From: Acidimicrobiales bacterium
GTDB taxonomy: Bacteria; Actinomycetota; Acidimicrobiia; Acidimicrobiales; Aldehydirespiratoraceae
Assembly: GCA_965116865.1 (NCBI GenBank)
Contig: OZ220727.1
Location: 1,156,798-1,220,797 of the forward strand
Reading direction: 5' to 3'
Length of the DNA: 64,000 nucleotides
Of this stretch, positions 2,602-63,450 are shown piece by piece. The notes under the pieces are model-generated. The model had not been told where the DNA came from and did not search any database. It saw nothing but the letters and a program-made list of their open reading frames with translations. Numbering within the stretch: position 1 is the stretch's first letter; the number at the start of each line of letters is the position of its first letter. The position numbers and the translations under genes were made by a program.

Positions 2602-2707
2602 CCGTCCGAGTATCGACGATCGGCCCGCACCCGGCAGCGACCGCTGCCCCGAACCCGGCAATGACCGCGAACACCGCCCGAGTATCGACGATCGGCCCAC
2701 GCCCGGC
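2602..2707. repeat. X-Y-X junction repeat, period 72 bp
   Basis: The segment ccg(t/c)ccgagtatcgacgatcggccc.c.cccggc occurs at 2602-2635 and 2674-2707, between tRNA-Arg and tRNA-His. Confidence 0.85.
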
Positions 2708-2753
2708 TTCCGGCGGCTGCGGTACACTGTGCATCGCCCGCTTCGGCGGTCGT

Positions 2754-2828
2754 GGTGGCCGTAGCTCAGTCGGTTAGAGCGCCGGGTTGTGGTCCCGGAG
2801 GTCGGGGGTTCGACTCCCCTCGGTCACC
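2754..2828 (+). tRNA. tRNA-His (anticodon GTG) with encoded G-1
   Basis: Acceptor GTGGCCG/CGGTCAC, with G-1 (2754) opposite C73. D-arm GCTC-AGTCGGTTA-GAGC, anticodon loop TTGTGGT, T-arm GGGGG-TTCGACT-CCCCT. Confidence 0.9.
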
Positions 2829-3026
2829 CGCCCCCTCCCCTGTGCGGAGTCGTCGGTGCCGCCGCGGTCGAAGTCGACGGGTCCCGCCGTGGTCGGGAGA
2901 TGGGCCTTGGGAAGCGTCGCGGCTGCGGCCGGGCGACGCTGCAACCATCGGCAGCGCATGGGCCGACAACACCGCACCTACCGAGCCACGCGACTGGAGT
3001 ATCCGGGCTAGCCTGGAAGCTTGCAA

Positions 3027-3100
3027 GCGCCTCTAGCTCAATCAGGCAGAGCAACGGACTCTTAATCCGCAGGTTCTGGGTTCGAGTCCCAGGGGGCGTA
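3027..3100 (+). tRNA. tRNA-Lys (anticodon CTT)
   Basis: Acceptor GCGCCTC/GGGGCGT, with G1-T72 and T6-G67 wobbles. D-arm GCTC-AATCAGGCA-GAGC, anticodon loop CTCTTAA, T-arm CTGGG-TTCGAGT-CCCAG. Confidence 0.8.
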
Positions 3101-3233
3101 CTTACGCAAATGCAGGGACCATCGCAGGCAGGGGAAGCCGTCGGCACCAGGCTAGGCTGTAAGCGCCGGTCGGGCTCCGCCCGGTGGTGCAGGTCTGGAT
3201 GGACCTCGTGCAGGCGCGAAGGGTGACGCCGAC

Positions 3234-4130
3234 ATGGACCGCTACGCGATATTCGTAGACGCCGAGTTCCTCTACCGAGAGGGCGGCGTGCTGTGCTGCA
3301 ACAGCCCGGACCGGCAAGAGATCCTCCTCTACGCCCTAGGCGCCAACGACTTCCTCGTCGGTCTCGCGACTGAGGTCTGCGATCTCCGGCCGCTTCGCAC
3401 CTATTGGTACGACACCTCGAGCGACGGGGCGCCGACCCCGGCCCAGCAGATGGTGGCGACGCTTCCCGACATGAAGCTGCGACTCCAGACCGGCGCCGGC
3501 CAGGACTCGCAATCGTCGCTGGGCGCGGCGATCCGGCGCGACCTGTCCACGCTGGCCCGCGAGCGGGCCATCTGCGACGCCTTCCTGCTGACGGACGACG
3601 AGGATCTGCTCGACTGCGTCCTCGAGGTCCAGGACCAGGGACTGCGGGTGACCCTGATCGACATCGCGTCGCATGGGGAGAGCGGGGAGGGGCCGGCCAG
3701 ACTGGCCAACGAATCGGACGAGGTCATCAAATTGACCAAGGACGATCTGTCGAGGTTCATCAGACGCCGACGCACTCCCGACGACGCTTCTGCCGACACC
3801 TACGACCCGGTCGACTCGGTCGCCGCAGCAGCGGCAGCCTTCGCCGAGAACTGGCTCTGCCAGGCCAGCGACGACGAGTTCTACGCCATGCTCGGCCATC
3901 GCCCCCGCATACCCGAATCGCTGGACGGCGACCTGCTCTACGCTGTCGAGAACGTGATCGGTGGAAGCCTGCGAGGCCAGGACCGCCTCAGGATCGCTGT
4001 GCGCCAGGCCTTCTGGAACAGGATCGAACAGGAGATCGAAGGACTGGCCCCTGAACCGGTGCGGTCTGCGGCACGGGAGGCGGGACCGCCGAACCGCACA
4101 CGGATGAATCAGTCCGCGGGACCGCGGTAG
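3234..4130 (+). CDS. NYN (LabA/DUF88-like, PIN-fold) domain protein with uncharacterised C-terminal half
   Basis: N-terminus MDRYAIFVDAEFL and the later segment AFLLTDDEDLLDCVLEVQDQGLRVTLI match the acidic-residue pattern of NYN ribonuclease-like domains. 298-aa ORF. Confidence 0.65.
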   Translation: MDRYAIFVDAEFLYREGGVLCCNSPDRQEILLYALGANDFLVGLATEVCDLRPLRTYWYDTSSDGAPTPAQQMVATLPDMKLRLQTGAGQDSQSSLGAAIRRDLSTLARERAICDAFLLTDDEDLLDCVLEVQDQGLRVTLIDIASHGESGEGPARLANESDEVIKLTKDDLSRFIRRRRTPDDASADTYDPVDSVAAAAAAFAENWLCQASDDEFYAMLGHRPRIPESLDGDLLYAVENVIGGSLRGQDRLRIAVRQAFWNRIEQEIEGLAPEPVRSAAREAGPPNRTRMNQSAGPR

Positions 4131-4163: not shown

Positions 4164-5123
4164 TCAGCCGTCGGCCGCCGGAGCAGGTGCCGGCCCGCGC
4201 CGCGCTCCGAGAGCACGCAGCAACGCCCTCCGCCCAAGTGGCGGCATCTCCGCCGCCTGACCGGGCCCGCGCCGCGCTCCGAGAGCACGCAGCAACGTCT
4301 GCACCGTGAGCACGGCCAAGAACACGACGACGGTGGCGAGGGCCATGGTGGCTCCGGCTGCGGTGTCGTAGTGATAGCTGGCCAGCAGGCCGACCACCAC
4401 GGAGCCGATCCCGACCGCGGCTGCGACGACCATGATGCGCGGCACCCGCCGCACGAGCAGCACGGCAGTGGCCGGAGGAGCGATGAGGAAGGCGAACACC
4501 AGCAGGTTCCCCACGGCCTCGAACGATGCGATGATCGAGACGGCCAGCAGCACCAGCAGCACACCGTGGGCGAGACGGGGACGGAGGCCGAGGACCTGGG
4601 CCTGGGCGTGGTCGAACGTCATGACCAGGAACGCCCGATAGAAAACGACGACCCCGCCCACCGAGAGGACCGCCGCGACAGCCTGGCGGCGGAGGTCGCC
4701 CGCGTCCACTCCGGTGACGGACCCGAACAGGAAGCGGTTCAGGTCCCCGACGTAAGCTCCCGACGAACTGGACATGATGGCCACGGCTAGGGCCAGGAAA
4801 CCGACGAACAGCACCCCGATGGACGTGTCCTCCGGCAGCGGTGAGCAGCTGCGGATCATGTTGATGCCGCACACCATGGCGATGGCCGCCACGAAGGCGC
4901 CGATGGTGGTGTCGACCCCGATGATGAACGCCAGCGCGATCCCGGGAAGCACGCCGTGGGCCAGCGCGTCCCCTAGGAAGCTCATGCCCCGCAGCACTAC
5001 CCATGTGCCCACGACCGACGTGGTGAGGACCGCGAGCAGGCCCGCATAGAGAGCCCGGCGCATGAAGATGTTGGATGTGAACGGGTCGACCCACCACGAC
5101 ATGGGGTCGGTCAGGAACTCCAC
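4164..5123 (-). CDS. znuB: metal (zinc-type) ABC transporter permease, ABC-3 family
   Basis: 319-aa polytopic ORF typical of ZnuB/MntB/TroC permeases, directly downstream of the binding-protein gene. The C-terminus is extended in frame by the 72-bp repeat (LLRALGARRGP appears twice). Confidence 0.8.
   Translation of the reverse strand: MEFLTDPMSWWVDPFTSNIFMRRALYAGLLAVLTTSVVGTWVVLRGMSFLGDALAHGVLPGIALAFIIGVDTTIGAFVAAIAMVCGINMIRSCSPLPEDTSIGVLFVGFLALAVAIMSSSSGAYVGDLNRFLFGSVTGVDAGDLRRQAVAAVLSVGGVVVFYRAFLVMTFDHAQAQVLGLRPRLAHGVLLVLLAVSIIASFEAVGNLLVFAFLIAPPATAVLLVRRVPRIMVVAAAVGIGSVVVGLLASYHYDTAAGATMALATVVVFLAVLTVQTLLRALGARRGPGQAAEMPPLGRRALLRALGARRGPAPAPAADG
4190..4297. repeat. X-Y-X junction repeat, period 72 bp, inside the 3' end of znuB
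   Basis: The segment ggcccgcgccgcgctccgagagcacgcagcaacg occurs at 4192-4225 and 4264-4297. Confidence 0.9.
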
Positions 5124-9922: not shown

Positions 9923-10264
9923 CCTGGAACGGACCTCAGAGCAAACGCAGACAGGCGAGAGTCCCAGCCCCATTCGCCGGTCACGCGCACCCTGCCCGCT
10001 GGAACGGACCTCAGAGCAAACGCAGACAGGCGAGAGTCCCAGCCCCATTCGCCGGTCACGCGCACCCTGCCCGCTGGAACGGACCTCAGAGCAAACGCAG
10101 ACAGGCGAGAGTCCCAGCCCCATTCGCCGGTCACGCGCACCCTGCCCGCTGGAACGGACCTCAGAGCAAACGCAGACAGGCGAGAGTCCCAGCCCCATTC
10201 GCCGGTCACGCGCACCCTGCCCGCTGGAACGGACCTCAGAGCAAACGCAGACAGGCGAGAGTCC
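9923..10264. repeat. 75-bp tandem array, 4.5 copies
   Basis: The segment ggaacggacctcagagc starts at 9926, 10001, 10076, 10151 and 10226. The last unit runs directly into dispersed-repeat copy 2. Confidence 0.95.
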
Positions 10265-20110: not shown

Positions 20111-21209
20111 GCTCGGCCGTCCCGCGGTCGCCGGCGCCGGCTACGGTGCGGCGCTCGCCGATCTCCCACCGGATCCGATAGTTGAGGAGCACGGCCACCG
20201 CCAGCGCTGCGAGAAGGATCAACGCCTGCAGGATCACCGAGATCGACGACTCCACACCGAGCGTCTGGATCGACTGGCCGCCGACCTGCACAGCGCCGAA
20301 CACGCAGGCCACCACGGCCACGCCGGAGGGCCGCATCAGCGCGAGCGCGGCCACGATGATTCCCGCGTATCCGTAGCCGTTCGACAGGCCGGGAGACAGA
20401 CGGCTGGCCGTCCCGGTCAACTCCACCGCCCCGGCCAGTCCGGCGATGGCTCCGGACAGCAGCAGAGAGACCAAGATCTTGCGCTCCAAGGAGATCCCCG
20501 CATAGCGCGCCGTCGCCGCCGACGATCCAGCGACCCGGAGCTCGTACCCCCAGGCGGTGCGCGCCACCGCCAGCCAGAACACGATCAGCAGCCCCGCCGC
20601 CATCAGCACACCGACATGCGCCCGACCGAACAGCACCGGCAAGGACGACTGGTCGGGCAGTTCGGCGATGACCGCGAACCCGAACGAGTCGGGATCCTTC
20701 CAAGGCCCCACCTCGAGCCATTCGACGATCCGGATCGACACCTCCACCAGCATCAGGGTGGTGATGATCTCGTTCACGTTCAGGTACGCACGGGCCAGCG
20801 CCGGCCCGACGGCGAGAACCAGTCCCCCCAGCGCGCCGGCGGCGACCATCACCACGATCAGCGGCGGCCCGGCGAGGTCCTCAGCCACTAGGGCGACGGC
20901 GGTGGCCAGCGTGGCGCCGGCCATCATCTGACCCTCCGCTCCGATGTTCCAGAGCCCCATCGACCCCGCCACCGCCACCGCCAGCCCGGTCAACGCCAGC
21001 GGGGTGGCCCTCACCAGGGTGCGCGACAGCGAGTCGGTCCCGCCGAGAGAGGAGTCCAGCATCCGCTCGTACACGGTGATCGGGGAATGGCCCGAAGCCG
21101 CCAGCAGGACCGCGCCCACCACGAGGGCCGCTCCGATCCCGACCAGGAAGGCGACGCCCTGCGCAGCCGGCACCACGCGCTCGCGCCGCTGGAGCACCGG
21201 AAGGATCAT
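20103..21209 (-). CDS. ABC transporter permease (BMP/nucleoside-type system)
   Basis: Polytopic ORF. The likely start is ATG 21209 (MILPVLQRRERVV). The upstream 53 codons of the track ORF are repeat read-through. Confidence 0.8.
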   Translation of the reverse strand: MILPVLQRRERVVPAAQGVAFLVGIGAALVVGAVLLAASGHSPITVYERMLDSSLGGTDSLSRTLVRATPLALTGLAVAVAGSMGLWNIGAEGQMMAGATLATAVALVAEDLAGPPLIVVMVAAGALGGLVLAVGPALARAYLNVNEIITTLMLVEVSIRIVEWLEVGPWKDPDSFGFAVIAELPDQSSLPVLFGRAHVGVLMAAGLLIVFWLAVARTAWGYELRVAGSSAATARYAGISLERKILVSLLLSGAIAGLAGAVELTGTASRLSPGLSNGYGYAGIIVAALALMRPSGVAVVACVFGAVQVGGQSIQTLGVESSISVILQALILLAALAVAVLLNYRIRWEIGERRTVAGAGDRGTAERV

Positions 21210-21368
21210 GGCCCCACCCGCACGGCGGCCCCGCGGCCGCGGAATGGTCCCGCAACTGCCAATGGGATCATGAGACGCACCCGCACGGCGGCCCCGCGGC
21301 CGCGGAATGGTCCCGCAACTGCCAATGGGATCATGAGACGCACCCGCACGGCGGCCCCGCGGCCGCAT
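21201..21368. repeat. 63-bp tandem array (2.4 copies) between the ATPase stop and the permease start
   Basis: Units start with acccgcacgg at 21216, 21279 and 21342. Each unit ends gggatcatgagacgc, mimicking the permease start region ggaaggatcatg. Confidence 0.9.
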
Positions 21369-27566: not shown

Positions 27567-27673
27567 GTCGCCGGGGTCTTCGGCGGACTGATTCGAGTTC
27601 GTGCGCGCGGCGCGCCGAAAATCGTCCAGCCCCTCGAGTCGCCGGGGTCTTCGGCGGACTGATTCGAGTTCGT
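27567..27673. repeat. X-Y-X junction repeat, period 71 bp
   Basis: The segment gtcgccggggtcttcggcggactgattcgagttcgt occurs at 27567-27602 and 27638-27673, between the Fic start and tRNA-Pro. Confidence 0.9.
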
Positions 27674-27853: not shown

Positions 27854-29560
27854 ATGAGCCCACTTCACGAAGCCCAGCGCAGGGCCGACGCGATCAAGCG
27901 ATATCTAGCGCCCGAGTCGTTGGAAGACGCTCTGGACGTGCTCGCGACGCGCGGCCCCTCGGCACGGGCCATCGCCGGCGGCACCGACCTGCTGTTGGAA
28001 CTCAGCCGCGGCGCGCGGACCGGCATCGACACCCTCGTCGATCTGAGCGTGCTCGACGGGCTCGACACCATAACCGAGCACCGTGAGCGGGTCGAGCTGG
28101 GGCCCCTCGTCACCCACGCCGATGTCGTCGGGTACGAGAGGATGCCGTCGGTGGGACTGCCGCTCGCGCAGGCCTGCCTGGAAGTCGGAGGACCGCAGCT
28201 CCGCAACCGGGCCACGGTCGCCGGCAACATCGTCACAGCCAGTCCCGCCAACGACACTGTCTCCGCTCTGTACGCGCTCGGCGCCGACGTGACCGTCTCA
28301 TCAGCCGGAGGCGGCAACCGGACCATGCCGATCTCGGACTTCCTCACCGGTTTCCGCACCACCGCGCTGCAACCGGGCGAACTGGTGACCAGGATCGCCT
28401 TCGACGTCTTGGGAGGCCCCCGGCGGGGGATCTTCGTGAAGCTCGGGCTGAGGAGGGCGCAGGCCATCTCGGTGGTCCACGCCGCCGCGGTCGTCACCGA
28501 AGACAGCGACGGCGCCGTGGCCGACCTGGTGGTGGCTCTCGGAAGCGTCGGCCCGACCATCGAACTGGTGGACGCAGCCGTCGGCATAGCCAGGGGCCGG
28601 CGCCTCGCCGCCGCCGCCGCCGACGTAGCGGCCGCGTCACGGGCTGCGGTCACACCCATCGACGACCTGCGCGCCACAGCCGAGTACCGCAGCCGCACGG
28701 TCGAGGCAGTGGTGGAACGAGCGCTGCGCTCGCTGGCGGCCGGCACCGAGGCCGCCACCTGGCCGTATCGGCCTCCGCGCCTCGCGGCGGCCGCCCGCCC
28801 CGCAGCAGCGCCCGCGCCAGCGACCGACGGCGCCTCGCGGCGGGAGGACGCCGACGACAGCGCCGCCACCCGCGACGTGCTCACGGGCAGCGCCGTCGCC
28901 ACGGGCTCGCAGCGGGAGATCACCGACGGCAACACCATCACGGCGACCCACACCCCCGGCTGGCAGCTCCACCGGCCAGACGTTCGGGAGATCACCGACG
29001 GCAACACCATCACGGCGACGGTCAACGGCGTCGAGCGCCGCGCTGCCAACGCCGCGGGGCGCACGCTGCTCGACTGGCTGCGACTCGACCTCGGACTGAC
29101 CGGCACCAAGGAGGGCTGCGCCGAGGGCGAGTGCGGCGCCTGCACCGTCCATCTCGACGGCCGAGCCGTGCTGGCGTGTCTGGTGCCGGCCGCCCGGGCC
29201 GCCGCCGCCAGCGTCACCACGGTCGAGGGTCTGGCCTCGCCGGACGGAGCGCTGCATCCGGTCCAGCAGGCCCTGGCGGACTGCGGGGGCGTCCAGTGCG
29301 GCTTCTGCACCCCCGGGTTCGTGATGAGCGCCGCCATGCTGGCCGAGGAGGAGCCCCACCCGAGCCGGGCACAGGTGGAGCACGGTCTGGCCGGGAACCT
29401 GTGCCGCTGCACGGGGTACTACTCGATCATCAACTCCCTCACCGACAGCGACGCGTCCCCCGCCGCCGACACCACACCGCGAACCGGCAGCCACAAGCCC
29501 TCGAACGGGACTCCCCCGCCGCCGACTCCCACCGACGCGTCCGGAGCGGCCGGGCTGTGA
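27854..29560 (+). CDS. fused FAD-binding (CoxM/XdhB-like) and [2Fe-2S] (CoxS/XdhC-small-like) subunit of a molybdenum hydroxylase
   Basis: The N-terminal half has AIAGGTDLLLEL and other FAD-binding features. The C-terminal part has GCAEGECGACTV, QCGFCTPG and NLCRCTGY. An Ala/Pro-rich linker contains a 72-bp duplication. Confidence 0.85.
   Translation: MSPLHEAQRRADAIKRYLAPESLEDALDVLATRGPSARAIAGGTDLLLELSRGARTGIDTLVDLSVLDGLDTITEHRERVELGPLVTHADVVGYERMPSVGLPLAQACLEVGGPQLRNRATVAGNIVTASPANDTVSALYALGADVTVSSAGGGNRTMPISDFLTGFRTTALQPGELVTRIAFDVLGGPRRGIFVKLGLRRAQAISVVHAAAVVTEDSDGAVADLVVALGSVGPTIELVDAAVGIARGRRLAAAAADVAAASRAAVTPIDDLRATAEYRSRTVEAVVERALRSLAAGTEAATWPYRPPRLAAAARPAAAPAPATDGASRREDADDSAATRDVLTGSAVATGSQREITDGNTITATHTPGWQLHRPDVREITDGNTITATVNGVERRAANAAGRTLLDWLRLDLGLTGTKEGCAEGECGACTVHLDGRAVLACLVPAARAAAASVTTVEGLASPDGALHPVQQALADCGGVQCGFCTPGFVMSAAMLAEEEPHPSRAQVEHGLAGNLCRCTGYYSIINSLTDSDASPAADTTPRTGSHKPSNGTPPPPTPTDASGAAGL
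28914..29019. repeat. X-Y-X repeat, period 72 bp, in frame inside the CoxM-CoxS linker
   Basis: The segment gggagatcaccgacggcaacaccatcacggcgac occurs at 28914-28947 and 28986-29019. The protein reads REITDGNTITAT twice. Confidence 0.9.
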
Positions 29561-34188: not shown

Positions 34189-34595
34189 CCCCCACAGCCC
34201 CCATCCTCACGCATTTCTCGATACTCCTCCACGCGAAAACTCCCACCAACCACACGATCCCGCGGATCCAGCGCCGCCGTCGCCGTGACGCTCACGGCCC
34301 GCCACCGCCGCCGCAGCCGACACCTGCGCAGCCGACAGCGCCGCCATCGCCGACCTCGACACCACCAACATCTCACGCAACTCCGAACACGACGCCGCGC
34401 CCGCGCCCACCAGCTCCAGCATCTCGGAGGCAGCGGCCTCGGCCCGACGAGCGGCTTCGATCAACATGCACACAGCATCCCACAGGGGTATGACATCCAC
34501 CCCCCACAGCCCCCATCCTCACGCATTTCTCGATACTCCTCCACGCGGAACTCCCACCAACCACGCGATCCCGCGGATCTAGCGCCGCCGTCGGT
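33957..34595. repeat. 311/312-bp tandem duplication covering the 5' end and upstream region of the HNH gene
   Basis: The segment cagcgccgccgtcgccgtgacgctcacgg starts at 33957 and 34269, with a third partial start at 34580. By eye the copies are about 97% identical. Confidence 0.9.
34207..34500 (-). pseudogene. duplicated N-terminal fragment of the DUF222/HNH gene
   Basis: MDVIPLWDAVCMLIEAARRAEAAASEMLELVGAGAASCSELREMLVVSRSAMAALSAAQVSAAAAVAGRERHGDGG is nearly identical to residues 1-76 of the 32155..34188 product. It then diverges and stops. Confidence 0.8.
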
Positions 34596-34662
34596 TGTCG
34601 TGGTCATCTTCGACGACCTCGTCGAGGCCATCCATGCGGTTCCGCGGATCTAGCGCCGCCGC
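34571..34662. repeat. X-Y-X junction repeat, period 71 bp
   Basis: The segment ccgcggatctagcgccgccg occurs at 34571 and 34642. Confidence 0.75.
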
Positions 34663-35742: not shown

Positions 35743-35850
35743 GCGCGCCGCGCGGCGCTCCGCGGTCAAGGCCCGCACCCGAATCGCTGCTGCCTGCCTC
35801 GCTCACGGCTCACGCGCGCCGCGCGGCGCTCCGCGGTCAAGGCCCGCACC
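35743..35850. repeat. X-Y-X repeat, period 71 bp, disrupting the IS110 transposase frame
   Basis: The segment gcgcgccgcgcggcgctccgcggtcaaggcccgcacc occurs at 35743-35779 and 35814-35850. Confidence 0.9.
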
Positions 35851-36218
35851 GCCGCCGTCAACCAGATCAAAGCGCTGTTGGTGACCGCCCCCGAGCAGAT
35901 CGCCGCCCCGCTGCGGGGCCTTCGCACCGCCGCTTTGGTCGGTGCCTGTGCTCGACTGCGGCCCGATACCGCCGGCGGCGAGGCTGCCGGCGCGGCGAAG
36001 AGGACCATGCGCGGCCTGGCGCGACGGCACCGGGCGCTCAGCGGCGAGATAGACGAGCTCGACGCTGAGATCGCCCGCCTGTGCATGCAGGCGAATCCCG
36101 CTTTGATGGCCGCGCCCGGCGTCGGCGCGCAGACTGCCGCCGCGCTGCTCGTCGCCGCTGGCGACAACCCGCGGCGCCTGCACAGCGAGGCGTCCCTCGC
36201 GGCGCTCTGCGGAGCCGG

Positions 36219-36306
36219 CCCCATCGAGGCGTCCTCGGGGCGCACAATGGCTGTCCTCGTGGGCCGCGACAGCCAGTCGCCCCATCGAGGCGTCCTCGGG
36301 GCGCAC
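36219..36306. repeat. X-Y-X repeat, period 61 bp, disrupting the IS110 transposase frame
   Basis: The segment ccccatcgaggcgtcctcggggcgcac occurs at 36219-36245 and 36280-36306. Confidence 0.9.
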
Positions 36307-36765: not shown

Positions 36766-37026
36766 TACCGGCCGAGGCTAGTCAGGGGACCTCCGTCGAC
36801 AGCGTCGTGGTGTTCCCATACGGTGCCGAGTTCGAGGCACCGGCCGAAGCTGGTCAGAGGACCTCCGTCGACAGCGTCGTGGTGTTCCCATACGGTGCCG
36901 AGTTCGAGGCACCGGCCGAAGCTGGTCAGAGGACCTCCGTCGACAGCGTCGTGGTGTTCCCATACGGTGCCGAGTTCGAGGCACCGGCCGAAGCTGGTCA
37001 GGGGACCTCCGTCGACAGCGTCGTGC
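36766..37026. repeat. 72-bp tandem array (3.6 copies)
   Basis: The segment gacctccgtcgacagcgtcgtg starts at 36788, 36860, 36932 and 37004. Confidence 0.95.
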
Positions 37027-38392: not shown

Positions 38393-38467
38393 GTGCGGCC
38401 CCCTTGTTCTCTCCGGCACGGAACCGATCTGGGCATCGTCGCGCACCGACCGGATCCGTCTCTTCTA

Positions 38468-38819
38468 GCCGCGGCCGACGCACAACTGGGCGATCCCCCG
38501 CCGACCCAGCGTCGAGGCACCGACCACCCTCGGAATCCTCCTCAAGCCGCGGCCGACACACAACTGGGCGATCCCCCGCCGACCCAGCGTCGAGGCACCG
38601 ACCACCCTCGGAATCCTCCTCAAGCCGCGGCCGACACACAACTGGGCGATCCCCCGCCGACCCAGCGTCGAGGCACCGACCACCCTCGGAATCCTCCTCA
38701 AGCCGCGGCCGACACACAACTGGGCGATCCCCCGCCGACCCAGCGTCGAGGCACCGACCACCCTCGGAATCCTCCTCAAGCCGCGGCCGACACACAACTG
38801 GGCGATCCCCCGCCGACCC
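38468..38819. repeat. 78-bp tandem array (4.5 copies) in a divergent intergenic region
   Basis: The segment gccgcggccgac starts at 38468, 38546, 38624, 38702 and 38780. Confidence 0.95.
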
Positions 38820-39741: not shown

Positions 39742-40400
39742 GCCGCGGCGGCGAACTGCACCGCCAGAGGCTCGACACCGGAGCCTGCGACGTCGGCGAG
39801 CCGTCCGGGACCGACTATGCGGCCTTGACAACGCACCGCCAGAGGCTCACACCGGAGCCTGCGACGTCATCTGACAGCGTCGACGAGCAGCACCTCAGGA
39901 GTTCCCTCGCCGTCTGGCTCGTGCGCGTCCGCGACGGCGCCGACCCCGACCCGGTCGCCGCCACACGCTTCGCGGACGTGTCCGCCGACCATCCCCACGC
40001 CGCGTTCATAGAACGCTTCGCTCAACTCGAAGTCACCGAAGGCTGCCGCGACGGCACCCGCTACTGCCCCGACGACACCGTCACCCGTGCCCAGATGGCG
40101 AGCTTCCTGCACCGTGCCCGGACCCTGAAACTCCTCGAGCTCGACGACGCGCCCGCGCTGGAGGTGCTCCGAGCCGACCCGCACCTGGTGGGCACCTACC
40201 CGCCGCCGGTGGTCATAATGGCAGCGCCTCCCCGCGGTGTTCGACGCCGTGAGACGGGCCGTGGACGACGACCGCTCCCCGGGGCGGTTCCTCATCACCG
40301 GCTCAACCTCGCCCAAGCGGCCTCCGACCACCACTCTTCACGGCTGAGCCGATGCACGGCTTCGGCCACGACATCGAGCATGGTCGTGCCCCGCTGCTGA
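39738..40400 (+). pseudogene. composite remnant: SLH-like domain fragment followed by a fragment of a DUF4143-type AAA ATPase
   Basis: FADVSADHPHAAFIERFAQLEVTEGCRDGTRYCPDDTVTRAQMASFLHRA is SLH-like. In another frame at about 40240-40350, AVFDAVRRAVDDDRSPGRFLITGSTSP parallels residues of the 41708..43000 ATPase (GRPGQFILTGSAVP). Confidence 0.35.
39759..39868. repeat. X-Y-X repeat, period about 75 bp
   Basis: The segment caccgccagaggctcgacaccggagcctgcgacgtc occurs at 39759. The second copy at 39834 has a 1-nt deletion. Confidence 0.85.
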
Positions 40401-44004: not shown

Positions 44005-44550
44005 GGAAGACCCCCGCGTGGGCGGCGCCTCAGACGGTCCACCTCCTCGCAGACCCGGCGCTTGGGGAAGACCCCCGCGTGGGCGGCGCCTCACCCCCGG
44101 ATCCGTCGCAGCGCCTCTGTCGCGTTCATCGGCAAAGCGGTCCGCACCCGCGTGGGCGGCCCTTCACCCCCGGATCCGTCGCAGCGCCTCTGTCGCGTTC
44201 ATCGGCAAAGCGGTCCGCACCCGCGTGGGCGGCCCTTCACCCCCGGATCCGTCGCAGCGCCTCTGTCGCGTTCATCGGCAAAGCGGTCCGCACCCGCGTG
44301 GGCGGCCCTTCACCCCCGGATCCGTCGCAGCGCCTCTGTCGCGTTCATCGGCAAAGCGGTCCGCACCCGCGTGGGCGGCCCTTCACCCCCGGATCCGTCG
44401 CAGCGCCTCTGTCGCGTTCATCGGCAAAGCGGTCCGCACCCGCGTGGGCGGCGCCTCACTCCCGGATCCGTCGCAGCGCCTCTGTCGCGTTCATCGGCAA
44501 AGCGGTCCGTACCCGCGTGGGCGGCCCTTCACCCCCGGATCCGTCGCAGC
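44005..44550. repeat. tandem array, 8 X copies (first interval 61, then 75, then 72 bp x5), seeded on the HIT gene stop
   Basis: The segment acccccgcgtgggcgg / acccgcgtgggcgg starts at 44010, 44071, 44146, 44218, 44290, 44362, 44434 and 44506. The unit contains ccttcacccccggatccgtcgcagc, which is the last 6 codons plus the TGA of the HIT gene. Confidence 0.95.
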
Positions 44551-47188: not shown

Positions 47189-47464
47189 GAGCCGCTCCAA
47201 GGGGGCCGAGCCGCCCCAAGGAGGTCTCGTGCGGACGACTCCCTGCAGCCGCCGACGCCGGAGCCTCACCGTGCGCATCGCCCGCAACCGGAGAGGTCTC
47301 GTGCGGACGACTCCCTGCAGCCGCCGACGCCGAGATCTGGCAGCGGCGGCGCTGGTGCCCCAAGGAGGTCCCGTGCGGACGACTCCCTGCAGCCGCCGAC
47401 GCCGAGAGCTGGCAGCGGCGGCGCTGGTGCCCCAAGGAGGTCTCGTGCGGACGACTCCCTGCAG
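47189..47464. repeat. repeat-spacer-like array, period 72 bp (X 40 bp, Y 32 bp), in the thrS/fabI divergent region
   Basis: X (gaggtctcgtgcggacgactccctgcagccgccgacgccg) occurs at 47221, 47293 and 47365, with a partial copy at 47437. Y1 at 47261-47292 differs from Y2 and Y3 (47333, 47405), which differ from each other by 1 nt. Confidence 0.9.
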
Positions 47465-48595: not shown

Positions 48596-49654
48596 TCACG
48601 GGCCGCTGTCGTCGGTCTCGTCGAAGATGTCGCCCACCAGGCCCTCGAGGATGTCCTCCAGGGTGACCACGCCCAGCATGCGCCCGGTGTCGCTTCGCAC
48701 CAGAGCCATGTGAACTCGCGACCGCCGCATGTCGAGCAGGAGGTCGCGACCGGCCATATCAGGGCCCACCACCCGCATGCGGCGCACCAACTCCAACGGC
48801 AGCGGATCGTCGCAGGCCTCCTCCGGCATGCGGATCAGGTCCTTGGCGTGGACGAACCCCAGCACGTCGTCGGGTTCCGACCCCCACATCGGGATCCGGG
48901 TGTGTCCGGTGGCGGCCACCACATCCTCGAGTCGGGCCGCGGACGCCCCCCGGGGCACGGACACCAGCCGGTCGGCGGGCACCATCACCGATCCGACCGA
49001 CTGGGCACGGAACTCCAGCGCGCCCGACAGCAACTCGTGCTCGGTGGGCTCGATCACGCCCTCCTCGCGGGCGCCCGCGAGCAGCGTCCGGAACTCGTTG
49101 ATGGTGAGCGCGGTGTTGATCTCGTCCACCGGATTGATGCCCATCAGGCGCACGATGCGGTTCCCCACGAAGTTGAGGGACGCGATGACCGGTCTGAACA
49201 CTGCACCGTAGATGCGCATGGCCGGCGCCAGCAGCCGTGCCGACGCCTCCGGCTCGGCAATGGCCATGTTCTTGGGGACCATCTCGCCCACCACCACATG
49301 CAGCGTCGTCACCACGAACAGCGCCACCGCGAAGGAGATCGTGTGCAGGACGCCGGACGGAACCTCCACGACCCTCTCGATGACCGGCTCGATGAGGTGG
49401 GCGATGGCCGGCTCGGCCACATAGCCCAGCACCAGCGAGGCCATGGTGATGCCGAACTGGGCTCCAGCGAGCTGGGTCTGCAGGTCGCGCACCGCTGCCA
49501 GGGCGATGCCGCTGCGCCTGTCGCCGTCGGACGCGGCCGCCTCCAAGCGAACAGCACGGGCCGCGACCAGCGCGAACTCGGCCGCCACGAAAAAGGCGTT
49601 GGCCCCGAGCATCACCACCGCCACAACCAAGGCTACGACCGTCGCCGTGCTCAC
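48596..49654 (-). CDS. CNNM/CorC/TlyC family protein (DUF21 + CBS pair)
   Basis: GTG 49654 gives VSTATVVALVVAVVMLGANAFFVAAEFALV (DUF21), followed by CBS-pair-like regions. The track ORF start at 49849 lies inside the repeat. Confidence 0.8.
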   Translation of the reverse strand: MSTATVVALVVAVVMLGANAFFVAAEFALVAARAVRLEAAASDGDRRSGIALAAVRDLQTQLAGAQFGITMASLVLGYVAEPAIAHLIEPVIERVVEVPSGVLHTISFAVALFVVTTLHVVVGEMVPKNMAIAEPEASARLLAPAMRIYGAVFRPVIASLNFVGNRIVRLMGINPVDEINTALTINEFRTLLAGAREEGVIEPTEHELLSGALEFRAQSVGSVMVPADRLVSVPRGASAARLEDVVAATGHTRIPMWGSEPDDVLGFVHAKDLIRMPEEACDDPLPLELVRRMRVVGPDMAGRDLLLDMRRSRVHMALVRSDTGRMLGVVTLEDILEGLVGDIFDETDDSGP

Positions 49655-49876
49655 CGCGACACCCCCGAACCGACCAAGCACCGACCCCGCCGAAAAAAAC
49701 AGCCCACAACCGTCGCCGCGCTCACCGCGACACCCCCGAACCGACCAAGCACCGACCCCGCCGAAAAAACAGCCCACGACCGTCGCCGTGCTCACCGCGA
49801 CACCCCCGAACCGACCAAGCACCGACCCCGCCGAAAAAACAGCCCGCAACCGTCGCCGTGCTCACCGCGACACCCC
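49636..49876. repeat. 70/71-bp tandem array (3.4 copies) seeded on a GTGA stop/start junction
   Basis: The segment g(t/c)gctcaccgcgacaccccc occurs at 49647, 49718, 49788 and 49858. The A7 tract at 49693-49699 contrasts with A6 tracts in the other units. Confidence 0.95.
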
Positions 49877-51235
49877 CGGTGCTGCCGGGCCGCACCCGTC
49901 CCTTCGCCCCAGCGCGGGCGCGGCTACGGATACGACAGGCGCCGCCACCCGGACAGCGGCGATCCTCAAACGGTCGACAGCCACCACCTCGAGGCGCCAG
50001 CCGTCCACGGTGACGACCTCGCCGGGCACCGGTATGTGGCCCAGCCTGTCCAGCACCAGCCCGGCCAGCGTCTCGTAGCCGCCTTCGGGCATGGCGAAGC
50101 CGGTAGCGTCGAACACCTCGTCGGTGTGCAGCGACGCGGACAGCACCGTCGAGCCCCGGGACTCGGACCGGGTGCGCTCAGGGGTGGACGAGTCGTGCTC
50201 GTCGTCGATCTCACCGACGATCTCCTCAAGCACGTCCTCGAGGGTGATGATCCCCGCCGTGCCGCCGTGCTCGTCGACCACCACGGCCAGCAGACCCGCG
50301 CCGGCGCGCAGGTCGTGCAGGATGTCGTTGAGATCGCGGGACTCGGGCACGGCAAGCACCGGCTGCATCAACTGCGACACCGGCGTGGAATGCCGTTGCG
50401 GCCCGGGCACGGCGAACAGCGATTTCACATGGACCACGCCGGCCACGTTGTCGAGATGGCCCGCCGTGACCGGAAACCGGGAATGGCCGGTGCCGACGGC
50501 CAGTTCGGCGAGGTAAGCCACCGAGGCGTCGGCCTCGATGGCGACCACCTCCACCCTGGGCACCATGGCGTCGTCGGCCTGCTTGTCGGCCAGGCGGATC
50601 GACCGGGTGAGCAGCCACACCTCGTCCTCGTCGAGCATCCCCCCCTGCCCCGATGAAACGAAGAGGTGTTCGAGTTCGTCGCGATCAGGCACCGTGTCTA
50701 TCTCCTCGCGCGGCTCCATGCCGAGTCGGCGCACCATCCAGTTGGCCGCGCCGTTGAGGAAAGCCACCACAGGCCGGGCCAGCACGCCGTACACGGTGGT
50801 CGGAACGGCCACCGCCACCGCTGTCCCGAAGGGCTTCGTGGTGGCCACCGCCTTGGGGACGAGCTCGCCCATCATCATCTGCACGATCGTGGCCAGCATC
50901 AGCGCGACCGCGACGGACACGCCCGAGGGCGTGTTGCCCCCGAACAGCGCCTCGACTCCGGGCGCAATCATCGGCGCCAGGGCCGGTTCGACCATGAAGC
51001 CGAGAAGCAACGACGAGACCGTGATGCCGATCTGCGCGCCCGACAGGTGAAACGACAGCCGGGCCACCAAGCGCTGGACCATCCGGGCCCGGCGGTCTCC
51101 GGCCCCTGCCCGTTCGTCCACTCGGGTGCGGTCCACCGCCACCAGCGCGAACTCCATGGCGACGAAGAAGGCGTTGGCTGCCATCAGCGCGAGAGCGGCC
51201 AAGAGCCACAGCGCGGTCTCTATCGGTCCTCCCAA
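49862..51235 (-). CDS. CNNM/CorC/TlyC family protein (DUF21 + CBS pair + CorC_HlyC)
   Basis: N-terminus LLAALALMAANAFFVAMEFALVAVDR, then CBS-like segments and the C-terminal transporter-associated domain. 457 aa. Confidence 0.85.
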   Translation of the reverse strand: MGGPIETALWLLAALALMAANAFFVAMEFALVAVDRTRVDERAGAGDRRARMVQRLVARLSFHLSGAQIGITVSSLLLGFMVEPALAPMIAPGVEALFGGNTPSGVSVAVALMLATIVQMMMGELVPKAVATTKPFGTAVAVAVPTTVYGVLARPVVAFLNGAANWMVRRLGMEPREEIDTVPDRDELEHLFVSSGQGGMLDEDEVWLLTRSIRLADKQADDAMVPRVEVVAIEADASVAYLAELAVGTGHSRFPVTAGHLDNVAGVVHVKSLFAVPGPQRHSTPVSQLMQPVLAVPESRDLNDILHDLRAGAGLLAVVVDEHGGTAGIITLEDVLEEIVGEIDDEHDSSTPERTRSESRGSTVLSASLHTDEVFDATGFAMPEGGYETLAGLVLDRLGHIPVPGEVVTVDGWRLEVVAVDRLRIAAVRVAAPVVSVAAPALGRRDGCGPAAPGVSR

Positions 51236-53147: not shown

Positions 53148-53325
53148 GTCGTTCCGGAGGACCGCGACCTGACGGCACCGCACCCCCGGGCTCCGGAACC
53201 TCACCGGCATGTTCCTCGCAGACCGTGACCTGACGGCACCGCACCCCCGGGCTCCGGACAAGCCCGCAGCCTCATGAGGCAAGTCGTTCTGGAGGACCGC
53301 GACCTGACAGCGCCGCGCCGGTGCC
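53148..53325. repeat. three-copy X-Y repeat (intervals 61 and 74 bp) between convergent genes
   Basis: The segment gaccg(c/t)gacctgac(g/a)gc(a/g)ccgc occurs around 53161, 53222 and 53296. Confidence 0.75.
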
Positions 53326-55380: not shown

Positions 55381-55492
55381 GCCCGCGCAACAGAGACAAC
55401 GCCTGTGGTTGTCGCACCTTGAAGATCTCGTCGGCGGTCATGCGCCGCACGGAGCCCGCGCAACATAGACAACGCCTGTGGTTGTCGCACCT
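55381..55492. repeat. X-Y-X junction repeat, period 73 bp, seeded on the stop of the 55491..56912 gene
   Basis: The segment gcccgcgcaaca(g/t)agacaacgcctgtggttgtcgcacct occurs at 55381-55419 and 55454-55492. Each X carries the hairpin gacaac-gcctgtg-gttgtc. Confidence 0.9.
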
Positions 55493-56912: not shown

Positions 56913-56936
56913 GAGGTGGCGACGGATCTGAACCGG

Positions 56937-57010: not shown

Positions 57011-57103
57011 TGGTAACGGTCGAGGCTACCAGCGGCATGGGAGTTGAGAACGCCGGGTTGACGGCAAGGGGACCGCGCCGCCGGCTTCAGCCCCAAACCG
57101 AGA

Positions 57104-57194
57104 GTCCGGTCAGACCGCGTCGGGGGCGATGGTCCGACCGCATCGCCGTTGCCGCCGCCGGCGCCGTCCGGTCAGACCGCGTCGGGGGCGATGG
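57104..57194. repeat. X-Y-X junction repeat, period 62 bp, seeded on the amidase stop
   Basis: The segment gtccggtcagaccgcgtcgggggcgatgg occurs at 57104-57132 and 57166-57194. The second copy contains the amidase TGA (57172-57174). Confidence 0.9.
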
Positions 57195-58584: not shown

Positions 58585-58679
58585 TGACTCAGCCCTCCCG
58601 TGTATGTCTCCCGCCGCCGGCCCGAGCAGCCAGTCCGAAGGGGCTCACCCACAACCTGCCGGCCGGGTGGGTGGGCATT

Positions 58680-59299: not shown

Positions 59300-59318
59300 A
59301 TTGCCATTGTAATGGCCA

Positions 59319-60677: not shown

Positions 60678-60708
60678 GCCGCGAGTGTTGCACGCCCAGC
60701 CACGGCTG

Positions 60709-60885
60709 GCAGAACAAAGCACGCGCGCGCACGCCATGCACGACCGGTGCGCGTGTTTGGACCGAACACGCGCACCGGTGGCAGAACAAAGCGCGCGCAC
60801 GCCATGCACGACCCCGGTGGCCCGGCCCCGGTGGACGGCCCGCAGCCGCGCAGAACAAAGCACGCGCGCGCACGCCATGCACGAC
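60709..60885. repeat. repeat-spacer-like array (X 36/32/36 bp, two unrelated Y of 36 and 37 bp) in the murF/ddl divergent region
   Basis: X (gcagaacaaagc(ac)gcgcgc(gc)acgccatgcacgac) occurs at 60709, 60781 and 60850. Y1 (60745-60780) is a perfect 14-bp-stem hairpin. Y2 (60813-60849) is unrelated to Y1. Confidence 0.9.
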
Positions 60886-60935
60886 GCTGCCATTTCGGCG
60901 CCGGCGCTAGCGTCGTCGGCGTGGAGGACCGCAGG

Positions 60936-62048
60936 GTGAGGCTGGTCGTGCTGTTCGGAGGACGCTCCGCCGAACACGACGTGTCGTGCGTCTCGGCCCG
61001 TCATGTGGTGGCCGCCGCCGATCCCGCGAAGTACATCGTCGAGCCGGTGGGCATAACCCGGGAGGGCCGCTGGGTGCGGGCGACGGAAGCCCTCGGCGCC
61101 GGCTCCGACGCTCTGCCCGAGCGACTCAGCGCCGCCGGTCAGGAGATCGAGCCTCTGACGCTGGCCGCAGACCGCGGAGACGACCCGTCCCGACCGACGG
61201 TGGTGCTTCCGATCCTGCACGGTCCGATGGGCGAGGACGGAACGGTGCAGGGCTTGCTGGAGCTGGCCCGGGTCCCCTACGCCGGGGCCGGGGTGCTGGC
61301 CTCAGCGCTGTGCATGGACAAGACCGCGGCCGCGACGATGCTGACAGCGGCCGGCATCGCCCACACCCGCTGGCGCAGCATGACGCTCGACGACCCGGAC
61401 GCTAGCGACGCCGCGCTGGCACCGCAGGTCGAGGCCATCGTCGATGATCTCGGCCTGCCGGTGTTCGTGAAGCCGGCCGGCATGGGATCGTCGGTCGGCA
61501 TCTCCAGGGCGGCCACCCGCCGCGGCATAGCCGACGGACTGCGCCTGGCATGCCGCTACGACCGATCCGTCATCGTGGAGGAGGAGGCCCGTGCCCGCGA
61601 GATCGAGGTGGCCGTGCTCGGCAACGACGAGCCCGCAGCGAGCCTGCCCGGTGAGATAGTCCCCGGCGCGGACTTCTACGACTACGCAGACAAGTACGAC
61701 GACGGCGCCGATCTGCTGGTCCCGGCGCCCCTCGACGACGACGAGACCGACGCTTGCCGGAGCCTCGCCGTCGCCGCCTACCGGGCGCTGCGGGCGGAGG
61801 GCCTGGCCCGGGTGGACTTCCTGTACGAGGACGGGCGCGGCGGGCGCGGCGACCGGGGCTGGATGGTGAGCGAACTGAACACGATGCCGGGCTTCACTCC
61901 CATATCGATGTACCCGAAGCTCTGGGCCGCGACCGGGCTCACCTACCCCCGGCTCATCGACCGTCTCGTGGAGCTTGCCCTGGAACGCCACGCCCGCCGC
62001 GAGCACCACACCCGCACCGATCCCGACACCGCCCTTCGCTTCGACTGA
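60936..62048 (+). CDS. ddl: D-alanine--D-alanine ligase
   Basis: GTG 60936 with GGAGGA 7 nt upstream. VVLFGGRSAEHDVSCVSA, ILHGPMGEDGTVQGLLEL and ELNTMPGFT. Confidence 0.9.
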   Translation: MRLVVLFGGRSAEHDVSCVSARHVVAAADPAKYIVEPVGITREGRWVRATEALGAGSDALPERLSAAGQEIEPLTLAADRGDDPSRPTVVLPILHGPMGEDGTVQGLLELARVPYAGAGVLASALCMDKTAAATMLTAAGIAHTRWRSMTLDDPDASDAALAPQVEAIVDDLGLPVFVKPAGMGSSVGISRAATRRGIADGLRLACRYDRSVIVEEEARAREIEVAVLGNDEPAASLPGEIVPGADFYDYADKYDDGADLLVPAPLDDDETDACRSLAVAAYRALRAEGLARVDFLYEDGRGGRGDRGWMVSELNTMPGFTPISMYPKLWAATGLTYPRLIDRLVELALERHARREHHTRTDPDTALRFD

Positions 62049-62139
62049 CAGGCCGATCGGCGCGCCGTGCATGGCGAGCGGCCCGTGATGCCGGTGGATT
62101 CAGGCTCCATCAGAAGTCGGCCGCGCTCGGCAGCAGGCT

Positions 62140-62403
62140 TCATCGAGACCTGCAGACGTCGCGGCGATGGCCGACGCGGATCACATGGATCACCAGGCGC
62201 TCGCCGATGACCTCATACAAGATCCGATAGTCGCCGACGCTCACCCGATACACGGACTCCTCACCCGCGAGAGCGACACAGTTCGGAGGCCTCGGCTCGT
62301 CAGCCAGCAGGTCTATCGCGGCTCGAACACGGCGCTGTTCGTGACGGGGCGCGGTTGGAGTTGGTGTTACCGCGTTCATTCGTCGCAGCATCGCCGGGGT
62401 CAC
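62140..62403 (-). CDS. relE: RelE/ParE-family toxin, N-terminally atypical and without a cognate antitoxin gene
   Basis: C-terminal YRVSVGDYRILYEVIGERLVIHVIRVGHRRDV is the canonical RelE/ParE core. The N-terminal strand and helix are replaced by repeat-derived sequence. Confidence 0.6.
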   Translation of the reverse strand: MTPAMLRRMNAVTPTPTAPRHEQRRVRAAIDLLADEPRPPNCVALAGEESVYRVSVGDYRILYEVIGERLVIHVIRVGHRRDVCRSR

Positions 62404-62459
62404 GGCCTCGACGTCCAGTCAATAGTTGGAGTTGGTGCTACCGCGTTCATTCGTCACAG
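62354..62459. repeat. X-Y-X junction repeat, period 71 bp, at the relE 5' end
   Basis: The segment gttggagttggtg(t/c)taccgcgttcattcgtc(g/a)cag occurs at 62354-62388 and 62425-62459. X contains an ATGA stop/start junction on the minus strand. Confidence 0.9.
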
Positions 62460-62520
62460 TGTCTTGAGACCGGCTGAACTGGAGAGATTTCGTATGATGT
62501 TCCACCCTCGCCGAGGCCGC

Positions 62521-63279
62521 TCACCCAGCCTGACCCTCAGCCGCTCCGGGTTGGATGTCGAGGAGGGGGCCGAGCTCCCGGAGGCGGGCGCGTCGTATGC
62601 GGTAGTCGGGCACGGCCTGGGCGACCACAGCCCAGTATTCGGGCGTGTGGCCGCGGACGCGCAGGTGTGCGAGCTCGTGGGCGATCACGTAGTCGAGGAG
62701 GGCGGGCGGGGCCATGACGGCACGCCAGTTGAAGCGCAGCGTGCCGTCCGGGGCGCAGCTCGCCCAGCGGCGGCGCTGACCGCGGACGAGGACCGCTTTC
62801 GGCTGCGCGCCGAGGAGGCTCGCGATGCGCTCCACGCGCGGCGGGAGCTTCAGCGCGGCGCGGTCGCGGTACCACGCCTCGAATGCGGCCCGCACCTTCT
62901 CGAGCCGTTCCTCGCCTCGCAGAAAGCGGGGGACGCCGACGTCGAACTCCCAGTGGTGGAACCCGACCTCGACCCTGGCGCCGTCGATGGGATGCACGGT
63001 GAGGCGCACCGACCGGCCGAGATAGGGCAGGGACTCGCCGCTGACGAACCGGCGGGGCGGTGCGCACGCCGTGGCCGCGCCGTCGTGCCGGACGATCCAG
63101 CCGGCACGGCGACGCACAGTCTCCTCGACTTGCTCCGCAGGCGTGTCGACAGGCGCCGCCACCCTGACGACACCGGGCGCATCGACGGTGACCTCGATCG
63201 TCTTGCGCCGTCTCGGGCTGCGGACGACCTGGTACTCGATCCGGGCTTCGCCGAAGACGACCTCCCCGCGCTCTGTCAC
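62521..63279 (-). CDS. DUF45/YgjP-like (M48-type) zinc metallopeptidase
   Basis: The HELAHL zinc motif lies within LDYVIAHELAHLRVRGH. The real start is GTG 63279 (VTERGEVVFGEARIEYQVVRS). This gene type is a common companion of type I R-M systems. Confidence 0.8.
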   Translation of the reverse strand: MTERGEVVFGEARIEYQVVRSPRRRKTIEVTVDAPGVVRVAAPVDTPAEQVEETVRRRAGWIVRHDGAATACAPPRRFVSGESLPYLGRSVRLTVHPIDGARVEVGFHHWEFDVGVPRFLRGEERLEKVRAAFEAWYRDRAALKLPPRVERIASLLGAQPKAVLVRGQRRRWASCAPDGTLRFNWRAVMAPPALLDYVIAHELAHLRVRGHTPEYWAVVAQAVPDYRIRRARLRELGPLLDIQPGAAEGQAG

Positions 63280-63450
63280 ACGAGCCTCTTGCGGGCCATC
63301 TCCATGACCTTCGAGCACCGCGACGACGACGCCGTACAGGCCCGCGTCACACGAGCCTCTTGCGGGCCATCTCCATGACCTTCGAGCACCGCGACGACGA
63401 CGCCGTACAGGCCCGCGTCACACGAGCCTCTTGCGGGCCATCTCCATGAC
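63275..63450. repeat. 71-bp tandem array (X-Y-X-Y-X) seeded on the hsdR stop / DUF45 start GTGA junction
   Basis: X (gtcacacgagcctcttgcgggccatctccatgac) occurs at 63275, 63346 and 63417. Y (cttcgagcaccgcgacgacgacgccgtacaggcccgc) occurs twice. Confidence 0.95.

Follow-up and report, generated by a model that had tools for sequence, protein, structure and literature searches.

Repeat arrays throughout the chromosome of a sponge-associated Acidimicrobiia genome as probable products of ectopic CRISPR spacer integration

Spacer integration outside CRISPR arrays has so far been treated as a rare laboratory side reaction. The closest described case comes from E. coli, in which off-target spacer integration and neo-CRISPR arrays were reported (Nivala, Shipman & Church 2018, Nat Microbiol 3:310); as described in papers that cite it, the events were rare, arose under overproduced type I-E Cas1-Cas2, and had only "circumstantial evidence" of natural occurrence in two other species. 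For P. furiosus Cas1-Cas2, an in-vitro plasmid assay showed that off-target sites share short features of the leader-repeat junction (PMC6698737). Here we describe short direct-repeat arrays of the form X-Y-X in a 64-kb window (the whole stretch of DNA that was analysed; G000:C1:1156798-1220797) and in the remainder of the same chromosome, a single contig of 3.32 Mb with 68.5% GC and an estimated completeness of 94.5%. The genome (G000) is a metagenome-assembled genome (MAG) of a sponge-associated member of Acidimicrobiia in the 'Ca. Aldehydirespirator' group. Judging from sequence, the arrays very probably arose by ectopic Cas1-Cas2 activity, in the form of full-site integration of CRISPR spacers at sites outside CRISPR.

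As in the E. coli events, a spacer lies outside the CRISPR array between two copies of a repeat-length target duplication, and a site that is used again can start a new array. Unlike those events, which were rare and depended on artificial overproduction, ~540 fixed loci make up 2.3% of a natural chromosome here, signatures of two CRISPR types are present (one of them not encoded) where the described events were of type I-E, and many units have been amplified into tandem arrays. The P. furiosus results share leader-junction-like sites with those described below, and differ in having been obtained on a plasmid in vitro rather than as fixed chromosomal events.

In the period range of 40-130 bp, an offset-match scan of the whole chromosome yielded ~934 short direct-repeat loci. 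The clustering of periods that the original prediction had described for the window was also sharp at this scale, with 530 of the ~934 loci at 70-76 bp (245 at 72 bp, 113 at 73, 58 at 74, 53 at 71 and 38 at 75) and 102 at 60-63 bp (44 of these at 61 bp). Single-unit X-Y-X pairs with three or fewer mismatches numbered 303 at periods of 71-75 bp versus 14 and 13 in two control period bands, and 97 at periods of 60-62 bp versus 13 and 16 in controls. The commonest X/Y splits were 36/36, 37/35 and 37/36, and 28/33 in the shorter class. With tolerant boundaries, X measured 36-37 bp in 120 of 263 single-unit arrays; among multi-unit arrays this held for 70 of 266, compared to ~7 expected under uniform phase (p ~1e-46), so that the phase of the terminal copy is non-uniform, with X fixed at 36-37 bp. 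In the 61-bp class the length of X peaked at 28-31 bp.

When the canonical CRISPR array was set aside and periods were restricted to 59-64 or 69-79 bp and the length of X to 20-48 bp, 543 loci remained, spread evenly around the chromosome. Reducing each of them to a single X removes 77.4 kb, or 2.3% of the genome. The set consists of 301 single X-Y-X units, 207 loci with 2-18 identical units and 35 loci with at least two different Y segments. The two copies of X differed by no mismatch in 129 cases, by one in 89, by two in 54, by three in 31, and so on, a spectrum which indicates that the events accumulated over time and not in one burst.

Tandem repeats in a comparable position are well known from another high-GC actinobacterium: the mycobacterial interspersed repetitive unit (MIRU) loci, which are variable-number tandem repeats (VNTRs), consist of tandem 50-100-bp units at gene junctions, and their units are homologous between loci. 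One of two explanations offered in the original prediction was a MIRU-like VNTR family, in which replication slippage would have duplicated native operon-junction sequence in tandem and no DNA would have been imported. The location of the arrays at gene boundaries and the several identical units in many of them fit this explanation, and slippage probably accounts for the later amplification. However, X and Y are locus-specific and no sequence is common to units of different loci, so that the predicted combination of shared geometry without shared sequence holds genome-wide; the terminal phase is set at 36-37 bp rather than uniform, and the spectrum of periods copies that of the CRISPR array described below.

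The origin of the two segments bears on the same question. Related genomes were searched for empty sites, and orthologous positions in species of the same genus were found to carry one X and no Y (window positions 28913, 63275 and 4192; at 36767, at least the right half of X). At window 63275, the sequence of G008 is shorter by exactly 142 bp (2 x 71) and runs from flank through a single X to flank, and at window 57104 conservation resumes at the start of the second X, with Y missing. When the 543 Y segments were compared with the genome itself, 134 had a match at another place in the chromosome. After segmental duplicates, in which the flanks match too, had been taken out, 73 remained as clean protospacers, in which identity does not extend beyond Y; most commonly they measure 36-39 nt in the 72-bp class and 33 nt in the 61-bp class. 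These are distant matches of exactly spacer length and not sequence flanking X. Copying in cis was considered as a source of Y and rejected, as distances between protospacer and array are no shorter than random. A MIRU-like family thus fails as the origin of the arrays, being already contradicted by the empty sites and by Y segments that are exact copies of distant loci, and we regard it as highly improbable; unlike MIRU loci, each locus here has its own X and Y and appears to have originated by insertion with target duplication.

The statement in the original prediction that no cas gene lies in the window was correct for the window itself, but a complete type I-G locus is located ~150 kb to its right. 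It holds the one cas1 and the one cas2 of the genome, in which no further cas1 homologue was found. The cas1 product is a Cas4g/Cas1g fusion of 549 aa (753.8 bits; G000:C1:1369651-1371300), and the operon is complete with Cas2, Cas3g, a Cas3-extension protein, Csb2 and Csb1/Cas7g. The nearest relatives of the Cas4-Cas1 protein are encoded by MAGs of sponge-associated 'Candidatus Aldehydirespirator' and other Acidimicrobiia. A canonical array of 146 repeats adjoins cas2 (C1:1358520-1369103), and its 36-bp repeat is found nowhere else in the genome. The 145 canonical spacers are mostly of 36 nt (66 spacers), 37 nt (32) and 38 nt (29), with 10 of 35 nt and 6 of 39 nt. The search for cas1, cas2 and matching repeat lengths thus returned a Cas4g/Cas1g-Cas2 pair with an array whose repeat and modal spacer are both 36 bp long, and the ranking of periods (72 > 73 > 74 > 71 > 75) is identical in the canonical array and in the scattered arrays. 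The shortest unit in the canonical array is 71 bp. One of its 146 repeats carries a 4-base variant, TGTCAG in place of TGGAGG.

The 145 canonical spacers include none with a full self match in the chromosome, which would be expected if self-targeting from the canonical array kills the cell. One canonical spacer (G000:C1:1361614) and an ectopic Y that is present in two copies (G000:C1:1106966) agree at 27 of 29 nt, and both were presumably taken from related foreign DNA.

The sites of the scattered arrays carry a mark of the same system. AGC stands at positions -4 to -2 of X in 65 of 478 flanks, compared to 9.6 expected (p = 2e-33), and GAGC stands at -5 to -2 at 30 sites compared to 3.6 expected, mostly on one side of the array only. 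At the canonical array, GAGCG closes the leader and GTC opens the repeat, and a junction of GAGCG followed by G is kept at most of 49 related type I-G loci with traceable arrays, from sponge-associated Acidimicrobiia. By this sequence comparison, GAGC-N before X corresponds to the conserved last five leader bases of this I-G family. When sites were oriented by the leader-like motif, the modal X was exactly 36 bp and its first base was G in 59%; apart from this first base, the X segments of scattered loci have no consensus that resembles the CRISPR repeat. A signal of the kind expected of a protospacer-adjacent motif (PAM) was also present: TAC adjoins 13 of 49 protospacers of the 72-bp class, a 10-fold excess over the 2.7% expected (p = 4e-10), and 0 of 24 in the 61-bp class.

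The scattered loci are thus like canonical type I-G adaptation by a Cas4-Cas1 fusion and Cas2 in the 36-bp duplication, the spectrum of spacer lengths, GAGC-N before the site and a PAM-like bias to TAC. They are unlike it in that the duplicated sequence is specific to each locus and differs from the repeat, there is no leader, the spacers are often self-derived and most protospacers have no motif. As they have no common repeat or leader, and just 35 of the 543 hold two or more distinct Y segments, the loci are not canonical CRISPR arrays.

These marks also bear on the idea that some non-CRISPR integrase or transposase, with a 36-bp target-site duplication and a cargo of ~36 bp, made the arrays and that the match to CRISPR is coincidental. 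Such an enzyme would fit with the majority of sites that have no recognisable leader-like motif, the majority of protospacers without TAC, and the closely related I-G systems elsewhere that have no such arrays. Against it, the cargo has no common sequence or common ends and is therefore no mobile element, both lengths and their spread match those of the resident array, and the site motif is the conserved I-G leader end at the same offset. There is one cas1 homologue found in the genome, and we know of no enzyme other than Cas1-Cas2 with such behaviour. A coincidental match therefore seems very unlikely, if slightly less so than the MIRU-like origin. The second explanation in the original prediction, a staggered-cut integration with Cas1-Cas2 geometry acting at ectopic sites, is supported by the geometry, the resident cas1 and cas2, the imported Y segments, the empty sites and the non-uniform phase; all checks suggested there that were carried out favour it.

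Under ectopic Cas1-Cas2 integration, the events would proceed as follows. The integrase would make a first cut at a leader-like motif, and a second cut would be set 36 bp away by a ruler mechanism, with gap repair then duplicating X. Prespacers would come partly from the cell's own chromosome, and the rest presumably from foreign DNA. Self-derived spacers could be tolerated at such sites if the locus-specific X is no substrate for the repeat-processing Csb2, in which case no CRISPR RNA would be made and no self-targeting would follow. Selection would remove disruptive insertions, leaving survivors that are intergenic or at gene ends. The direct repeat of X would then gain or lose whole XY units by slippage or unequal recombination to give (XY)nX with the half-unit phase kept, and the occasional entry of a second, different spacer at the same site would give a neo-CRISPR array. 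For the 61-bp class, the corresponding enzyme would be a type I-E Cas1e-Cas2e, which is lost, extrachromosomal or unbinned here and is present in congeners.

Assembly or sequencing error was weighed as a further source of the arrays, as repeats are prone to error and the single contig was assembled from a metagenome. In runs of three studies (a 2015 sponge metagenome, 2023 and 2025), 84-92% of sampled words of window 54001-64000 were present, and separately assembled contigs from these independent runs carry arrays: the X-Y junction of 55381 is present and 62354 is spanned entirely. The units in addition show consistent biology in their PAM-like signal, site motif and empty sites. An artefact is the least probable of all the explanations considered, with a likelihood close to negligible. 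Contigs from short reads stop at arrays, which limits comparisons of presence or absence and of copy number between strains. Among the 15 of 80 contig joints listed, no 'skip' joint of 71-73 bp was found, and the sole array difference seen in short-read contigs, which break at arrays, was a 4-nt indel in one X copy. That copy is the middle X of the array at 60708..60888, which at window 60790 is without the 4 nt GCGC present in the 2015 sponge-metagenome contigs (run X1). A contig of run X2 spans the array at window 62354-62459 without gaps despite 73 differing positions of 1457 (~5%), and the intact array in so divergent a contig indicates an insertion older than a strain-level split.

Several observations weigh against ectopic integration by the resident Cas1-Cas2; they concern the marks at sites and protospacers, the other carriers of the system, and the 61-bp class. 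Only 27% of the clean protospacers have TAC and 73% do not, and ~56% of the sites in the 72-bp class show no recognisable AGC motif. Among the 5 loci with both marks, a small number, the PAM side and the leader-like side disagree in orientation. Canonical spacers searched against phage and plasmid collections gave no match, and hence no independent PAM. Likewise, 1,700 spacers of 49 related arrays and the 145 local spacers, searched against G000 and the fetched loci, gave one informative match, in which TAC stands two bases off the predicted edge.

In most of the sampled genomes with a closely related I-G system, arrays are few or absent. Counting arrays of 70-76 bp, the density per 100 kb of sampled DNA is 15.5 in G000, and in I-G carriers of the same genus it is 6.2 (G069), 1.5 (G005), 1.0 (G006) and 0 (G010); G042 and G023, carriers from elsewhere in the family, also have 0. 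A scan of 80 related I-G loci for ectopic units gave hits almost solely on the side of the canonical array, where variant repeats had escaped masking, and it does not enter these densities. Having the system alone does not, therefore, explain the excess in G000. In congeners without the I-G fusion (G008, G003, G012 and G011), syntenic stretches of 68-85 kb hold 0-3 arrays with periods of 70-76 bp, and the window has 22 short-repeat arrays, counting all periods, in 64 kb. In G069, which has the second-highest density, genes are ~88% identical to those of G000, and Cas4-Cas1 is 96% identical. Residue 24 of Cas4g/Cas1g, which follows the first Fe-S cysteine in the Cas4 domain, is Arg in G000 and Gln in G069. 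Eight orthologues have Pro at this position; the density of ectopic arrays in their genomes is low, zero or unknown. From this alignment, the excess of arrays may trace to a change in the integrase itself (Arg or Gln versus Pro at residue 24); we treat the putative effect of this residue as a lead and not as a finding.

The 61-bp class is a further difficulty: no I-E cas gene is in the chromosome, yet the class is as young as the 72-bp class. It differs from the 72-bp class in an X of 28-29 bp, a spacer of 33 nt, the lack of TAC, and a flanking GAG at -4 with X often starting with GTC. The fraction of identical X pairs is 42% in the 61-bp class and 43% in the 72-bp class, so the two are equally young. 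Searches of the G000 chromosome with PF09707, PF09344 and a congener Cas1e protein as queries found no type I-E genes, and no orphan I-E array was found in G000. Complete type I-E systems, with 28-29-bp repeats and arrays of 61-bp period, are present in the congeners G005 and G069. The I-E leader-repeat junction of G069 reads GGAGA and then GTG, and the flank at window 57104, with GAGA and then GTC, resembles it. The part of the original prediction that equated 28 + 33 = 61 with Cas1-Cas2 geometry thus matches congener I-E arrays, but no integrase encoded in this chromosome can be assigned to it. A young class without I-E genes suggests that the integrase was recently lost or resides on a replicon outside the assembly.

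Alternatively, for the 61-bp class alone, the resident I-G integrase could have a second ruler mode, with a 28-bp duplication and a 33-nt spacer, and no I-E enzyme would be needed. The absence of an I-E gene from the chromosome, the equal youth of the two classes, and the overlapping targets that both sometimes strike would all suit such a mode. These overlaps consist of 61-bp and 72-bp geometry nested at G000:C1:1351109 and at window 44006/44074, and indicate that some sites attract both types of integrase. On the other hand, the classes differ in duplication, spacer length, PAM signal (0/24 versus 13/49) and offset of the flank motif, 28 + 33 is exactly the geometry of the I-E arrays of congeners, and the canonical I-G array has no units shorter than 71 bp. 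A second mode of the I-G enzyme is improbable on this balance, although clearly less so than a coincidental non-CRISPR enzyme is for the arrays as a whole, and it seems less likely than an I-E integrase that was lost or not assembled. The 28-bp X at window 44006-44033 contains the 15-nt core CCCCCGCGTGGGCGG of the G005 I-E repeat with differing ends; this may be chance, or a repeat-like feature that attracts the integrase.

The positions of the arrays relative to genes are consistent with a filter on insertions. Using a crude gene map (~80% coding) on the collapsed genome, so that percentages are approximate, and random 36-bp sites for comparison, 54% of ectopic sites are intergenic versus 17% of random sites, 13% cover a stop codon versus 2.4%, 4.8% cover a start codon versus 2.5%, and 25% are inside a gene versus 77%. 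The bias of X to gene boundaries that had been noted in the window is therefore real, and the gene names given there agree on spot checks (ppc, thrS/fabI, the permease and the amidase). Boundary sites would survive because duplication of X keeps one intact copy of each gene end; at window 63275, the stop codon of the upstream gene is in the last X and the start of the next gene in the first X. Periods divisible by 3 make up 62% of in-gene arrays versus 49% of intergenic arrays (p = 0.014). Slippage or unequal exchange between the copies of X, with the phase kept, would be the source of identical units, and different Y segments at one locus would reflect more than one integration there. Once amplified, the arrays may behave as VNTRs.

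All 21 arrays listed for the window in the original prediction are present. A best-offset scan recovered the claimed period at 19 of the 21 positions, and the two that it missed (39759 and 60709) were confirmed by reading the sequence; the longer arrays were detected with Tandem Repeats Finder and direct-repeat scans. Several are single X-Y-X units of the 72-bp class. At 2595..2707 (period 72, X ~41, Y ~31), between tRNA-Arg and tRNA-His, the X copies are 88% identical. The unit at 4192..4297 (period 72, X 34, Y 38) has a single X at the orthologous site in the congener G003, and that at 28913..29019 (period 72, X 35, Y 37) has one X and no Y in G008, G009 and G011. The I-G leader-repeat junction is resembled by the left flank, AGCC and then GTC, of the unit at 27567..27673 (period 71, X 36, Y 35). 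Further single units lie at 35743..35850 (period 71, X 37, Y 34), at 39759..39871 (period 74/75, X ~37 with a 1-nt indel, Y 38), at 55381..55492 (period 73, X 39, Y 34; the X-Y junction is the one found in contigs of three independent studies) and at 62354..62459 (period 71, X 35, Y 36; the array is contained entire and unchanged in a 782-nt contig of run X3). One more, at 34557..34661 (period 71, X 34, Y 37), is within a multi-copy DUF222/HNH element, and the unit has been copied together with the element.

Units of the shorter class occur at 36218..36306 (period 61, X 28, Y 33), which has type I-E geometry, and at 57104..57194 (period 62, X 29, Y 33) over the amidase stop codon, where 32 nt of Y match G000 position 2100384 at 100%. 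The 'mixed' array that had been placed at 44005 is real but is not one array. It is composed of a 28+33 unit at 44006..44094 (X-Y-X, period 61), in which 32 nt of Y match G000 position 972192 at 100%, and an (XY)6X array at 44074..44550 (period 73, X 39, Y 34, 6.5 copies) whose target overlaps the second X of that unit, so that two nested events are indicated. At 53160..53258 the period is 61 and a third partial copy of X lies at 53292 (spacing 74), the result of a complex event that is probably nested. At 21203..21366, at the 5' end of the permease gene, 2.6 copies have a period of 63 and the split between X and Y is ambiguous (38/25 or 26/37).

Amplification is evident at several loci. The array at 9924..10264 is (XY)4X with period 75 and units that are 100% identical, and represents a single spacer insertion that was amplified later. 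Amplified arrays also occur at 36767..37025 ((XY)3X, period 72), where congeners have one copy of the right half of X, at 38460..38819 ((XY)4X, period 78), and at 49623..49878 (period 70/71, ~3.4 copies), where congeners have a single partial copy. The (XY)2X array at 63275..63450 (period 71) lies at the junction between the stop of a 1041-aa gene, named hsdR in the original prediction, and the start of the next gene, and is the array where G008 has one X and is shorter by exactly 142 bp. The Y segments that had been reported to differ within two arrays do so. At 47221..47464, in the divergent thrS/fabI region, three units of period 72 hold two different Y segments, the product of repeated integration at one ectopic site, and at 60708..60888 the array reads X-Y1-X-Y2-X with unrelated Y segments of 35 and 37 nt, the product of two independent integrations at one site. 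At 38460 the first unit has TAG where later units have AAG, and similar cases occur at 36767 and 48342; the idea that internal copies had lost a stop codon by mutation was rejected: the differing bases lie outside the 36-39-bp X, and a spacer end that resembles the flank by chance is simpler.

Other repeats and variable stretches of the window are of a different kind. Window 48342-48545 is a plain tandem duplication (98 bp x2.1) without half-unit phase, and 48349-48597 is replaced by 16 other letters in contigs of runs X2 and X3, which marks this stretch as variable between strains. A stretch of ~12.8 kb (window 31800-44570) is missing in congeners, in which the conserved flanks are directly joined; it bears the multi-copy gene family encoding DUF222 and HNH-endonuclease proteins, with more than 10 further copies in G000 at 86-98% identity, and several ectopic units lie inside it. 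In-frame coding repeats that are unrelated to the arrays were found at 24092-24320 (15 bp x15.5), 5725-5858 (18 bp x7.3), 32754-33416 (complex repeats of 21/54/57 bp) and 33957-34593 (312 bp x2).

Full-text literature searches returned a single precedent for chromosomal off-target integration and neo-CRISPR arrays (Nivala 2018), and found no natural genome with hundreds of scars and no tandem-repeat loci seeded in this way. A mechanism of this kind is known already; the new aspects are its natural scale, the amplification in fixed phase, the large record of self-derived spacers and the footprint of a CRISPR type that is absent from the chromosome. The chromosome is a natural record of ~540 events and provides in-vivo data on type I-G recognition, by a 5-nt leader-end motif and a 36-bp ruler. 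It gives a view of naive and largely PAM-independent sampling of self DNA, which is normally hidden as self-targeting spacers in real arrays kill the cell, and it offers both a mechanism that creates VNTR loci with a fixed half-unit phase and examples of nascent multi-spacer arrays. Annotation of MAGs will mistake these units for CRISPR arrays or for tandem repeats of a generic kind, and a naturally promiscuous integrase may serve DNA-recording applications.

For the organism itself, the arrays imply that scars of a CRISPR type can persist in a chromosome that no longer encodes that type. A broader and more tentative possibility is that CRISPR adaptation here has escaped its array to become a major mutational force, possibly still active, which would scatter spacer-sized copies of self and foreign DNA, seed tandem repeats and nascent arrays, and preserve the record of a past I-E integrase.

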